A DNA stretch of 63,328 nt, counting the filler, from an uncultured Methanosarcinales archaeon (lineage in GTDB: Archaea; Nanobdellota; Nanobdellia; Woesearchaeales; CAZXZL01), in assembly GCA_964645415.1 (NCBI GenBank). It is 3 parts of 3 records of this genome, joined end to end, with 100 filler letters (N's around TTAATTAATTAA, not from the genome) between each part and the next. Parts side by side here need not be neighbours in the genome. Positions count along the whole stretch, not along the records: positions 1 to 26,092 come from CAZXZL010000010.1; 2 more parts are not named here. One strand, given 5' to 3'. Position 1 is the first letter of the stretch. Each line of letters begins with the position of its first letter. Shown here piece after piece: positions 12,001-18,000 of this stretch. The position numbers were made by a program.

Positions 12001-15000
12001 GAAAAAAACTAGAGCGTAATATGGAATGGAAATCTTCTCTTTTACATGCTTTATTAAGTAATTTTCCTGATCCTGTTTATTTTAAGGACACTAACTTAAA
12101 TTTTATTTTAGCAAATGATAAAACTGCTAAATCTCTTAAATTATCTTCTAAAGAAGATCTTATTGGAAAATCTGATGAAGATTTTTTACCTAAAGAAGAT
12201 GCTAAGTTATCGAGAACTCAAGAAGAGTATGTTATGGAAAAACAAGAACCATTAAAGATAGAAAAAAAAGTTGATGATGAAAAGTGGGTATTAATGACAA
12301 AAGTTCCTTTTATTGATAGTAATTGTGAGTTAAAAGGGATACTAGGAATTAATTATGATATTTCTGGAAGAAAAAAAGCAGAAATTAAATTAAAAGAAGA
12401 AAAAGATAGAATTGAATATTTATCTTTTCATGATGAATTAACTGGTCTTTATAATCGAAGATTTTTTCAAGAAGAAATTAATCGTTTAGAAAAATCTAGA
12501 TTAAATCCTATTGCAATAATTGTTGCTGATTTAGATGGATTAAAAAAGGTTAATGATGAATATGGACATGATAAAGGAGATGAGTATATTATAAATGCAG
12601 CAAATGTTCTAAAAGAAGTAAGTAGAGATGGAGATATTTTAGCTCGTTTAGGTGGTGATGAATTTTCAATAATACTTCCTGAAACTGATGATAATGGTGC
12701 AAAATCTTTTTGTAAAAGAGCTAAAAAATATTGTAAAAATAAAGGTGTTTCAATTTCAATAGGATATGCAATTAGATATAATGATAAATCCCTTGAAAAA
12801 ATATTTAATATTGCTGATCAAAGAATGTATGATGAAAAGAGAGTTAAAAAAAATTCTAGATGTTAATTATTAGTTTGGATTCTTAAAAAATCATTTAATT
12901 TTTATATTAAATCTTTTTTTATTATTTATGAAATTTAGTAAGATTATTTTCATTCTTTTTTTCTTTGTATTTATATTATCCGTTCTTTCAAATAGTTCTT
13001 TTTCTTATTGTATCATAGATTTAGATATTTCATATGAAAGGGAGTTTTTTTTTGATGGTGTTCAAGATGTAGTTTTAGAAACTAATGAGCATCCTATTAA
13101 TTATTCGAATCAAATTTCTAATCCTTCTTTTGAAAAAGAAATGAGAAATATTAAAATTGAGGATAACTTTTATAGTGATGAATTTAAAGTTACTCGTTAT
13201 AATTCTATTAATAATCTAAAAGGAAATATCTCTAATTATCCTTTTGATTTTAATACTAGAAGAGAGTTAGAAAAAAATTATTCAGAATATCTAAACTACT
13301 CTACTTCTATAAAATCTTTAATTGATGAAATCAATATCACTAATAACTCATTAAAAAATGTTTATAAGTTTTCAGAGTATGTTCATAATTATATTGAATA
13401 TGATAGAGAAATAACTCAAGTACAATCTATTGATGAGATTATAGAAAGAAAGACAGGAGTTTGTTTTCATTATTCTAAGTTGTTAGTTAATATTTTGAGA
13501 TATTATGGTTATCCTGCAAGAGAAATGAATGGTTTTGCTTATAGTAATATATATGATGAATTTGAAGGTCATAGTTGGGTTGAAGTATATGTTCCTGATT
13601 TAGGCTGGATTGAGATTGATCCTACTTTTGGAGAACATTTTTTTGTTAATCCAAAGAGAGTATTTATATCATATGGTGATATTAAAAGTCGTTTTGAATG
13701 GAGAGGGAGAGGTGACTTTGATAAAAATACGGAAAGATTTTTTGATATTACTTACAAAAAAGATAACTGTTTTTCTAATGTTTCTTGGGATTTTGAAATT
13801 TATCCTAACGAAGTTAAACCAGGTTCACAAACTCTTTTAACATTAGAATTATCTAATAATCATCCTTATCATATATTTCATTATATTAGTTTTTCATCTC
13901 CTAGTAAATTAGATTTTAAATTTAGTGAACCAATTTTAGTAAAATCTAATAGTAATTTAACCAAAAATATTTTAATTGATGTTCCGGATTCATTTGATGA
14001 AAATTATGTTTATACATTACCTATCGTTGCTTCTGATAGATTTGGAAATATGTACGAATCATCTTTTGATGTAGGTTCTAATTTTAATGATTATCAAATC
14101 TCTAAAGATGAAAAAATGGATAGTGCTTTTTTTATTTCTTTAGAATGTATTGAAGATTATTTTTATGTATTTGAAAATAATTCTATAAATTGTTATTTAT
14201 CTCATGACTCCTTAAAAAACAAATATTTTAATCTCTCAGTAAAATATTCTAATGAAAGTATCTTAAATGAAAGTATATCGGTTGATGTAAATTCTGATGA
14301 ATTAATTTCTATTCAGTTACCTAATAAATCCATTGGATCTCATGATTTAAATTTTTTAATTTCTTCTAATTCTATTGAAAATGATTTTGAAAAAGAATAT
14401 GTGATAAAAAAAGGAAATGCTTCTTTTGATTGTAATTATGATTATCAATCAAATTATTTTAATTGTGATGTCAATTCTTCATTTAATGGTAACTTAGTTG
14501 TAAATCATAATAATGAGTTAATATCAAGAAATCATATAAATGGTTCAGATTCAATTAAAATTGAAAGAGATCTTGAAATTACTGATTTTCAAGAGATATC
14601 TAAAAACTCTTTTAATGTTCAACTAGATTTAAGAACTTCAAAGGGTAGTTATAAAGTTTCAAAAGAATTTATCTATCATTATGAGTACTCATTATTTGAA
14701 TATCTTGTTTTTAAAATTAAAAACTTTTTTTATAATTTGTTTTAATTTTTTTAAATAAACTATTTAATTATTTTATTTTTAACATATATATTATTATTAT
14801 TATTATTATTATTATTGGATTATATAATAATATCAAATAATTTATCTTTTTTGTTTATTGAATTACTTTTAAATTAAAGAAATATCTTTTTCATATGTGA
14901 TATATATTTTTATTTATTTCTAATAATATATATTATTTGATAATTTATGAATGTTTTTTAAAATATTCATATGATGCTATTAAATTTTGATAATTCATAA

Positions 15001-18000
15001 TAGGTCTTTCAAAAAAACTACCATCATCTATTGATATTCTAGGACATGCTGTATTGATAAAATATTCAATATATGAGAAATCTTTCAAACTGTTATTATT
15101 AAGATTATCTCCTATTATAATATAAAAGCTTTTTTTCTTAAATCTATCTTCTAACCTTTTTTTTGCTTTAAATACTTCTGTGTTTTTTTGGCCAAATTTA
15201 GTTGATACTAATAAACCAATTTCTTTCTTTTTTAGAAAAATGGTATACTTTTTTAGTACTTTTTTTATGCTTTTTTCTATGTTAAAACTGTATTTATTTA
15301 GACCTAATTCAGTAATATAATAAACATTTATATTTTTATTATTTTTACTTAAATAGTTATCAAAATTAATTGAAGTTAGATGGTCATTAATTTGATTTGC
15401 TTTAAATGCTTCTAAATGGAATTTACCCTCACCTAAAAATAAATAATCCCCTGGATCAATTCTATGACAACCTAGTATTTGACCTTTTAAATTAGTATGG
15501 ATACTATTAACTAGTTTTGTTTCTATTTCTCTTTTTTCTAAATATGAACTTATCTTTTTTAATGAATTAATATATTGTCCAATAGATACTAATGTTAATT
15601 TTTTAGGTAATTTATCTATGTTTTGATCTATTGTGTTCTTTATTTTATCTAAATTTACCTTTTTTTCTCCTAAAAAATAATCTATTTTTGTCATAAATGT
15701 AGAAACTATACTTTATTTATATATTTTATATTTTTATATTAGTATTTAATTATTCTTATTATTCTTATTCTTATTATTCTCGTTATCTTTTTTTTCTTTT
15801 AAAAACTAAATTACTATTAGTTTTCTTTGTTTTAGTTGTTTGATTATTAATTTATTTTATTTATTTCTTAATTTAGGGAAACTTATTTAAATTAGAAGGA
15901 TTTTTTACAAAATGGGCAAAACTTTTTTAAAAGGGTTATTATTTACAATTTTGATAAATATTTTTTTGACCCAGAGAGGGGATGATAAAATGGAAATGAC
16001 AAAAGAATTAATTGATGATGTATTTGAATTGGTTGAAGTAGCAAGAGCTACTGGAAAGATTAAAAAAGGAACTAACGAAACAACAAAGGCAATCGAGAGA
16101 GGAAATGCTGAATTTGTTGCTTATGCTGGAGATGTATCTCCTAAAGAAATTGTTATGCATTTACCTTTACTTTCAAAAGAAAAAGATATCTTATGTCTTG
16201 AAGTTCCAACAAAAAAAGATCTTGGTGCAGCATGTGGTCTTGAATTACCTACAGCATCTGTAGCACTCACTAATCTTGGTGACGGTAAATCTAAACTTAA
16301 TAACATTAAAGAAAAAATTAAAGAACTTGAGAAAGTTGAAGATTAAACCTTTAGGTGTTAAAAATGGCTAAAAAGAAAAAAAATGAATCTAAAGATAAAA
16401 GTATTTTTACAAGGGCTTATCCTGCAGAAGTAGAAGAAATTGTAGGTAGAGTTGGTGCTAAAGGTGAAGCTTACCAAGTTCGTTGTAAAGTTCTTGAAGG
16501 GAGAGATGAAGGTCGTGTCCTTAGAAGAAATACAAAAGGACCTGTTAGAATTGGAGATATTTTAATGCTTCGAGAAACTGAAACTGAAGCAAAGAAGCTT
16601 CGACAAAATTAAAATTTTATTTGGTGATTTTTATGAAATGTACTTTTTGTGGTGATGAGATCCCTCAAGGGACAGGAAAAATGTATGCTAAAAATGATGG
16701 ATCTGTTTATTATTTTTGTTCAAGAAAATGTGAGAAAAGTTTACTTAAGTTAAAAAGAGATCCAAAAAGAGTAAGATGGACTGAAGCATATAGAAAGAGA
16801 AATTAATTTTTATTTTTTTTATTTATATCTAATTTATTGATAAATAATTTAAATAAAAGATTTGAACTATAAATATTTAATATAATATTTAATGAGGTAT
16901 AAAAATGATTGAAAGAACACTTGTATTAATAAAACCTGATGGTGTAAAAAGAGCATTAATTGGTGAAATATTAACTAGGTTTGAAAGAGCTGGTATGAAA
17001 ATTTCTGGTCTTAAAATGGTTTGGCCAGATGACGAAACAACTAAAAATCATTATTCTGAACATGTTGGAAAAGATTTTTTTGATGGATTAAAAGTTTTCT
17101 TAACTTCAGGTCCTGTTGTTGCTATTGTTTTAGAAGGAATTAATGCAGTGAAAAAAGTTAGAAAAATGATTGGGACTACTGAAGCGGGTCAAGCAGAACC
17201 TGGAACTATTAGAGGAGACTTTGGTTTAGCTACATATGATTATGCAGATAGTAATGAATTACCTGTTGTAAATTTAGTTCATGCTTCTGGAAATGTTGAA
17301 GAAGCTGAAAAAGAAATAAATTTATGGTTTGAAAGTGATGAACTTCACGATTATTCTCCTGCTCATGACGACTTTGTTACAGGAAATTTTATTTAGGTGA
17401 TATAAATGGCGAAAATGATAGATCGAATTAAATCAATTTGTGAAAATAAAGAAAAAATTAGGAATATTGGAATTGTTGCTCATATTGATCATGGAAAAAC
17501 AACTTTATCTGACAATTTAATTGCAGGTGCTGGAATGATGTCTGAGGATCTTGCAGGAAAAGCAAGAGCTTTAGATTTTCACGATGATGAAGCTGAAAGA
17601 GGAATTACTATTGACTCTGCAAATGTTTCGATGGTACATGATTATGATGAAGATGAATATTTAATTAATTTAATTGATACTCCAGGACATGTTGATTTTG
17701 GTGGTGATGTAACTAGAGCAATGAGAGCTGTTGATGGAGCAGTAGCATTGACTTGTGCTGTTGAAGGAGTAATGCCTCAAACTGAAACTGTTTTAAGGCA
17801 AGCTTTAAAAGAAAGAGTTAAACCAATTTTATTTATTAATAAATCTGATCGTTTAATCTCCGAATTACAACTTAGTCCTGATGAAATTCAAGAAAGATTT
17901 CTTAATATAATTACTGAAGTTAATAAGTTAATTAAAAGATATGCTGAAGATGAGTATAAAGAGAAATGGCAAGTTGATGTTTCTGATGGTAGTGTTTGTT

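Follow-up and report, generated by a model that had tools for sequence, protein, structure and literature searches.

The question raised by this locus is whether a 249-aa gene that covers only the C-terminal part of Dph2 is half of a working enzyme or what remains of a broken one. The window, that is, the whole stretch of 63,328 nucleotides analysed here, consists of contigs C10, C11 and C27 with N spacers between them. The gene lies in it, and a second, smaller piece of Dph2 lies outside it on contig C5:

14945..15694, minus strand: dph2-C, the large piece of a two-gene Dph2; 249 aa from an ATG start, an open reading frame with a PF01866 match.
C5:24224-24487, minus strand: dph2-N, the small piece; 87 aa from a TTG start, or 83 aa from an ATG.

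The genome-wide survey's note had described Dph2 as two unlinked, intact genes, and this description holds: the pieces cover complementary parts of PF01866, a whole-genome scan found exactly two PF01866 places and no third, and, from their positions in C10 (26,092 bases) and C5 (35,501 bases), both genes are internal to their contigs. A frame check found no long frame at 14945-15694 other than that of dph2-C. The genome itself (0.96 Mb, 100% complete) is compatible with DPANN membership; the name Woesearchaeales is that of the survey's note.

Both pieces score above the PF01866 cut-off of 33.2 bits, dph2-C with 106.4 bits (E 2.5e-30, profile positions 67-287 of 302) and dph2-N with 37.7 bits (E 2.1e-9, positions 1-57). 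They are complementary on the solved Dph2 chains as well: the small piece aligns with residues 23-84 of 6bxm and 19-84 of 6q2d, and the large piece with residues 102-186 and 231-313 of 6q2d. The top PDB matches of dph2-C are the Dph2 chains 6q2d, 6bxm and 3lzc, those of the small piece are Dph2 chains too, and a profile built from 36 small pieces matches residues 4-85 of 6q2d (E 2e-25). In place of a single polypeptide of about 330 aa and three domains, a pair of genes encodes the protein from separate contigs, which is what marks the split subgroup; the split Dph1/2 of DPANN archaea, as presented in passages of Narrowe 2018 (PMC6143161), is found in this genome and in its relatives.

The catalytic residues are divided unevenly between the two chains. 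In PhDph2, the [4Fe-4S] cluster is held by Cys-59 together with Cys-163 and Cys-287, from three domains, and Asp-60 adjoins Cys-59, according to the relevant passage of PMC11048331. C65 of the small piece (87-aa numbering, in GACD) aligns with the cysteine of 'ygaCD' in PhDph2 3lzc, so that the first cluster cysteine is on the small chain, as had been claimed. The cysteines of dph2-C, C76 in LGCH and C217 in TACPR (the latter had been given as C227), line up with 'lgCn' and 'saCpr' in 6q2d and 6bxm and correspond to Cys-163 and Cys-287 by motif rather than by counted numbering. Three putative cluster ligands are therefore present, one on the small and two on the large piece. For CmnDph2, the part of PMC10669111 on the active site lists seven SAM contacts: Gly158, His180, Gln237, Val265, Arg285, Asp289 and Asp290. 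Through the 6bxm alignment, whose chain numbering is the native one plus 4, six of these map to dph2-C: Gly158 to G75, His180 to H93, Gln237 to Q169, Arg285 to R219, Asp289 to D223 and Asp290 to D224. The seventh, Val265, falls inside the span aligned to dph2-C. The proposal of a [4Fe-4S]/SAM site shared between two polypeptides is thus upheld for the cluster, with cysteines on both chains, and not for the SAM pocket: since the mapped SAM contacts are all on the large piece, only the cluster would span two chains.

The break falls at the same site in all of the split genes sampled in the class, just after a (Q/H)xGH motif. Small pieces terminate 2-22 residues past the GH of this motif, and large pieces open with MKxxFxEA. 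Residues G35, K37, G63, C65, D66, G81 and H82 (87-aa numbering) are invariant in all 36 small pieces, and Q72, G75, C76, F92, K166, Q169, N214, C217 and R219 in all 56 large ones; this invariance suggests that both pieces are under purifying selection. The window's dph2-C is fast-evolving, as judged from its identity of 23-36% to relatives' large pieces and from its end branch, the longest among 66 tree rows (1.9 versus a median of 0.5); it still has every invariant large-piece residue. In a model of a full-length Dph2 from a relative (G098; pLDDT 88.9), strands at 21-25, 47-50 and 73-77 precede the break at about 82-87, and a strand at 89-92, a helix at 101-110 and the next domain, from 116, follow it. 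The break therefore lies between the third and fourth strands of the first domain, and the N-terminus of the C chain, with its MKxxFxEA, would probably give the last strand of the N chain's domain, a detail that relies on a string of secondary structure and an account of the fold rather than on contacts.

The arrangement is widespread among relatives. Across the order (121 genomes of 121 families), a Dph2 match was found in 120 genomes and at least two matches in 101; 94 genomes have two matches, 5 have three, 2 have four, 19 have one and 1 has none. At the level of the class, where every match was listed for 71 genomes, 57 have both pieces; 7 have only a full-length gene, 4 only the C piece, 2 only the N piece and 1 neither. 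The pieces of the 57 split genomes lie on different contigs in 43, on one contig but far apart in 5 (11.5-319 kb, on opposite strands) and next to each other on the same strand in 9. In a clade of 10 tree rows, the N gene comes first and the C gene follows in tandem, touching or overlapping it, which suggests translational coupling. Contrary to what had been stated, the order as a whole is not fixed for the split: three of the 148 order genomes examined (G045, G098 and G158) encode Dph2 at full length, with 328-337 aa in open frames of 330-342 aa. One of them, G098, has three Dph2 places on one contig: the full-length gene, a split N gene and a split C gene. On our 66-row tree, made by a quick method and unrooted, a single change between split and full-length forms is needed, with a branch of SH-aLRT 89 separating the 8 full-length rows from the others. 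Co-occurrence of the two pieces is not strict, since one 100% complete genome (G043) has only the N piece and another (G096) has Dph5 with neither Dph2 piece found.

The other parts of the pathway are present, as the survey's note had said, with EF-2 in the window:

17406..19577, plus strand: EF-2 gene, the Dph2 substrate; Pfam GTP_EFTU, EFG_III, EFG_IV and EFG_C.
19185-19187, plus strand: codon of the putative target histidine of EF-2, H594, placed by its position in the motif DAIHRGPAQ.
C12:6086-6826: Dph5, 291 bits.
C20:4056-4724: Dph6, 190 bits.

We take H594 to be the modified histidine because the motif around it is the conserved one. In the window, dph2-C adjoins an L7Ae-S28e-L24e-NDK-EF-2 cluster. 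None of L7Ae, S28e, L24e and NDK was found within 1.5 kb on either side of any relative's large piece, and an EF-2-like match, a weak one (E 4.9e-6), was found in these flanks in one relative only (L020); the neighbourhood of the large piece and this cluster was thus not found to be conserved. In another relative (G128, L072), S28e and L7Ae instead adjoin the small piece.

Based on these findings, we propose that the two genes encode one enzyme, Dph2, the 2-(3-amino-3-carboxypropyl)histidine synthase that acts first in making diphthamide on EF-2, with its chains associating non-covalently and its cluster lying across both; we put the probability of this reading at about 0.88. The arrangement is real and ordinary, and very probably functional. 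The N chain (83-87 aa, from C5) and the C chain (249 aa, from the window) would be made separately. Most likely they would then pair non-covalently to give a single protomer resembling Dph2, in which the first strand of the C chain probably completes the domain that starts on the N chain. This protomer would then probably dimerise as the single-chain archaeal Dph2 does. The N chain would provide one ligand of the [4Fe-4S] cluster, C65, and the C chain two, C76 and C217; the C chain alone would form the SAM pocket, and the ACP radical would be handed to His594 of EF-2. We infer the association, the strand complementation, the dimer state and the activity of the two-chain enzyme.

Homology makes association of the N and C chains most likely, and a complex prediction weakly supports it. 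The predicted complex scored 0.38 (runs of 0.48, 0.37 and 0.38), against 0.01 for the best of three controls, although its pass may reflect memory, since single-chain Dph2 structures have already been solved. Among solved complexes, 116 of 157 reached the mark for a pass, and among mismatched pairs 2 of 215 did; at 0.60 or below, only 18 of the 157 reached it, along with both passing mismatches; these calibration counts are only a rough guide here, because custom alignments and the 4Fe-4S cluster were included. The runs share at least 93% of their contacts, and partner pLDDT is at least 81. For positions 13000-20000 of the window, a look-up of sequencing runs listed no RNA run, which counts neither for nor against expression, and three DNA runs of one study, two of which may be the source.

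Could the large chain work alone, with the cluster on two cysteines and another ligand, and with the small gene dispensable for diphthamide or serving another role? Every mapped SAM contact and two of the three cysteines are on the large chain, the C piece stands alone in 4 of 71 class genomes, and single Cys-to-Ala variants of PhDph2 reportedly retain some activity. However, the cluster cysteine, its neighbouring aspartate and the GH motif do not vary in the 36 small pieces, and the presence of both genes in 57 of 71 genomes, together with the tandem N-to-C pairs, speaks for a joint role. The C-only genomes can also be misses, because short N pieces score close to the threshold. We therefore regard a self-sufficient large chain as unlikely.

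Less probable still is gene decay, by which the pathway would be in the course of loss and both frames would be remnants of a broken dph2. The long branch of the window's large piece would fit this, as would the complete relative in which no Dph2 was found and the stop codons flagged in some relatives, which had been offered as a sign of decay. Those flags, however, are mostly profile matches that overrun a gene's own stop. The small gene of this genome is an example: its match at 24215-24394 runs beyond the stop at 24224-24226 and is hence flagged '1 TAA', though the gene is intact. In addition, at least 57 genomes of several orders have the same break with invariant catalytic residues, and Dph5, Dph6 and the EF-2 histidine motif are intact.

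It is just as improbable that one polypeptide is restored by a split intein, trans-splicing or recoding, or that faulty assembly or a false frameshift produced the split: a single stop parts the adjacent pairs of some relatives, and the DNA polymerase of Nanoarchaeum equitans is one split protein joined by a split intein, yet the piece lengths and ends leave no room for intein halves, as the large pieces start at the very next strand of the full-length proteins, and distances of 319 kb (G025) and 259 kb (G085) between pieces on opposite strands in closed or one-contig genomes, along with the contig-internal genes here, led us to reject all of these.

The two-chain Dph2 that we favour has close counterparts among known systems. 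According to the survey's note, every described archaeon has its Dph2 as one chain; split forms are in fact already in print, as passages of Podar 2013 (PMC3655853), Narrowe 2018 (PMC6143161) and Dombrowski 2019 (PMC6349945) make clear. Summarising Narrowe 2018, a passage of Dombrowski 2019 names Woesearchaeota, Parv-, Pace- and Altiarchaeota as having split Dph1/2, Podar 2013 lists split Dph2 genes 222 and 440 in the Nst1 nanoarchaeon, and Narrowe 2018 warns in the part concerned that Dph1/2 should not serve as a single-copy marker of completeness for DPANN. As far as these passages go, there is no essential difference from our case: N- and C-terminal parts on two genes, often unlinked. The same passages carry no break position, no division of the cysteines into one plus two, no family share, no adjacent-gene clade and no genome with both forms. 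Compared with the single-chain archaeal homodimer (PhDph2 3LZC/3LZD, CmnDph2 6BXM/6BXN, 6Q2D), the family PF01866, the three cysteines and the SAM-pocket residues are the same by alignment, whereas here there are two polypeptides, the one of 83-87 aa bearing the first cysteine along with strands one to three of domain 1. The eukaryotic Dph1-Dph2 heterodimer, as described in parts of PMC10669111 and PMC11048331, is also a Dph2-type radical-SAM enzyme from two different gene products. Both of its subunits are paralogues of full length that carry a cluster apiece, whereas our two chains complement each other as parts of a single protomer. Other split genes of Nanoarchaeota, which in Podar 2013 Table 1 (PMC3655853) include those for reverse gyrase, Glu-tRNA amidotransferase, archaeosine TGT, a large helicase-related protein and more, are different proteins that are likewise informational, encoded by two unlinked genes in reduced DPANN genomes and split at sites common to relatives.

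As the two-gene split is already published for DPANN archaea, it carries little weight as a discovery. Our analysis adds the common break in domain 1, the SAM contacts on the large chain, the coupled adjacent-gene clade and one genome with both forms, and leaves the classification unchanged. There is also a bolder idea, which we think a long shot: split and full-length Dph2 would be separate lineages able to share one cell, as in G098; if paired, they would form an asymmetric dimer analogous to the eukaryotic Dph1-Dph2; and the free N chain, with its one cluster ligand and three strands of domain 1, could act as a detachable subunit controlling whether the cluster is assembled or the enzyme is active. 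If the N chain did so, it would be something other than a neutral outcome of genome reduction.

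In the genome under study (G000), Dph2 is encoded as two genes on different contigs, as the genome-wide survey's note had claimed:

Window 14945-15694 (contig C10), minus strand: large piece of Dph2, a 249-aa ORF, the sole long frame at this place.
L002:1510-1773 (an extracted locus), equal to C5:24224-24487, minus strand: small piece of Dph2, 87 aa from a TTG or 83 aa from an ATG, the start chosen in that note.

The large piece matches positions 67-287 of the 302 in Pfam profile PF01866 (Diphthamide_syn; E 2.5e-30, 106.4 bits; cut-off 33.2 bits). Across all 961 kb of the genome the profile has exactly one other match, at G000:C5:24215-24394, the small piece covering positions 1-57 (E 2.1e-9, 37.7 bits). 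The two cover complementary parts of solved Dph2 structures, the small piece aligning with residues 23-84 of 6bxm and 19-84 of 6q2d and the large one with residues 102-186 and 231-313 of 6q2d. The ORFs, the profile matches and these alignments thus confirm the two-gene arrangement. Since C10 has 26,092 bases and C5 has 35,501, both genes are internal to their contigs. The small gene is absent from the window, which consists of C10, C11 and C27 with N spacers between them. The spacers (26093-26192 and 49825-49924) each carry a 12-base linker word, and contiguity with the large piece ends at window position 26092.

Our comparison of ORFs, taken from 96 loci and assigned by phmmer, shows that small pieces stop 2-22 residues past the GH of a (Q/H)(F/W/Y)GH motif and that large pieces start MKxxFxEA. 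With the pieces added to full-length relatives, the break maps to about residues 82-91 of the full-length protein of relative G098, the ends of such fragment alignments being noisy. For an intein half, there is no spare sequence at the small-piece or the large-piece end of the break. Residues G35, K37, G63, C65, D66, G81 and H82 are invariant in 36 small pieces, as are Q72, G75, C76, F92, K166, Q169, N214, C217 and R219 in 56 large pieces.

Each Dph2 domain has been described as one sheet of four parallel strands together with three helices. In our model of the full-length G098 protein (alignment of 8 rows, mean pLDDT 88.9), strands at 21-25, 47-50 and 73-77 precede the break at about 82-87, which is followed by a strand at 89-92 and a helix at 101-110; the next unit opens with a strand at 116-121. 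If each domain is a four-stranded sheet, domain 1 would be cut by the break and would receive its last strand and helix from the large chain. A complex prediction from the partner's small-piece alignment and the large-piece alignment, with a riding 4Fe-4S cluster, scored 0.38 (runs 0.48, 0.37 and 0.38; best of 3 controls 0.01), with contact agreement between runs of at least 93% and partner pLDDT of at least 81. Of 157 solved complexes, 116 reach the mark used, as do 2 of 215 mismatched pairs; at scores of 0.60 or less, only 18 of the 157 do, along with both passing mismatches. With custom alignments and a riding ligand, these counts are only roughly valid here. The prediction hints that the two chains may bind each other. 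Because single-chain Dph2 is already solved, the pass may instead show likeness rather than binding.

In the small-piece profile, an invariant C-D aligns to 'ygaCD' of 3lzc, with the cysteine at chain position 95, which is residue 59 if the 378-residue chain has a 36-residue tag, a length we infer. In 6q2d and 6bxm, C76 of the large piece aligns to the cysteine of 'lgCn' and C217 to that of 'aCpr'; C217 had been numbered C227, off by ten. A figure legend in PMC10669111 lists Gly158, His180, Gln237, Val265, Arg285, Asp289 and Asp290 as SAM contacts of CmnDph2. Through the 6bxm alignment, the six other than Val265 correspond to G75, H93, Q169, R219, D223 and D224, all on the large piece. The idea of a [4Fe-4S]/SAM site spanning two polypeptides therefore holds for the cluster (C65 small; C76 and C217 large) and fails for SAM. 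From these alignments, the [4Fe-4S] cluster would be divided between two chains and the SAM pocket would lie on one.

The arrangement is widespread. Over 121 genomes of the same order, one per family and with the unpublished G112 counted in, PF01866 matched in 120: exactly two matches in 94 genomes, three in 5, four in 2 and one in 19; the remaining genome had none. Among the matches listed (150 of 230), a frame of about 170-310 aa over positions ~60-290 goes with one of about 85-165 aa over positions 1 to ~60, as in G000. In the class, 71 genomes were scanned and all rows tallied, with the following result.

State of dph2 in 71 genomes of the class
Split, different contigs: 43
Split, one contig, opposite strands, 11.5-319 kb apart: 5
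Split, adjacent, same strand: 9
Full-length gene alone: 7 (2 from the order, 5 from sister orders)
C (large) piece only: 4
N (small) piece only: 2
Neither piece: 1

The far-apart split group takes in one-contig genomes. Over both scans, a full-length dph2 occurs, among the matches listed, in 3 of 148 order genomes (G045, G098 and G158), so the split is the rule in the order but not strictly fixed, as it had been said to be. In G096 (100% complete, 20 contigs), PF01866 and the small-piece and large-piece profiles found no Dph2 piece; it does have Dph5 (C1:9679-10407), and either the gene is unassembled or another route is used. In G043 (100% complete), PF01866 and the large-piece profile found no C piece; this genome has the N piece (C51:22089-22337) and Dph5, and all seven other sampled genomes of its family have both pieces.

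On a quick, unrooted maximum-likelihood tree (66 rows, of which 58 are large pieces and 8 full-length proteins; 228 shared columns, under-filled N-terminal columns dropped), one change between split and full-length suffices. The 8 full-length rows fall together on one side of a branch (SH-aLRT 89, not starred), the order's full-length genes clustering with those of sister orders (G098 with G134, support 100). G098 carries both forms on one contig, C1: the full-length gene at 995201-996160, the split C gene at 741117-741722 and the split N gene at 803716-803952 (loci L003/L100, L097 and L102). All 10 rows with adjacent N and C genes form one starred clade (support 99), with arrangements that range from an overlap of a few bases through abutting ends to a gap of 67 bases, and in G159 with one extra gene between the two:

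L095:760-1377 (G159:C16), plus strand: ORF of 205 aa, hydrophobic in stretches and without a Pfam match; it overlaps the N piece (497-766), and 2 bases separate its end from the C piece (1380-2135).

No end branch of the tree is longer than that of the window's large piece (1.9 vs a median of 0.5).

Pathway genes and neighbors in G000 are as follows:

C12:6086-6826: Dph5, 291 bits.
C20:4056-4724: Dph6, 190 bits.
Window 17406-19577: EF-2, the substrate of Dph2, 1.7 kb from the large piece, with histidine motif DAIHRGPAQ kept (H594).
Window 12928-14745, plus strand: 605-aa transglutaminase-like protein (core PF01841, E 1.6e-18) with a hydrophobic N-terminus, directly downstream of the large piece on the opposite strand.
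L002:1745-2674 (G000:C5), minus strand: 309-aa protein carrying a Ham1-like domain; the match to the Ham1 family spans residues 45-152 (E 6.8e-9), and the C-terminal half is long and without a match.

The row L7Ae-S28e-L24e-NDK (nucleoside diphosphate kinase)-EF-2 (within window 15695-19577) is divergent from the large piece, 217 bases off, and this neighborhood is not kept at the relatives' loci. In G128 (L072), it is the small piece, not the large, that adjoins S28e and L7Ae. At its start the small dph2 gene overlaps the end of the gene with the Ham1-like domain, and the pair may therefore be co-transcribed.

A two-gene Dph2 had been put forward as new. Split Dph1/2 was already in print in Podar et al. 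2013 (PMC3655853), and Narrowe et al. 2018 (PMC6143161) concatenate the halves for phylogeny and caution against Dph1/2 as a completeness marker. Parvarchaeota, Pacearchaeota, Woesearchaeota and Altiarchaeota are given as lineages with the split by Dombrowski et al. 2019 (PMC6349945). The two-gene Dph2 of G000 is real, conserved and very probably functional; it is an ordinary member of this published kind.
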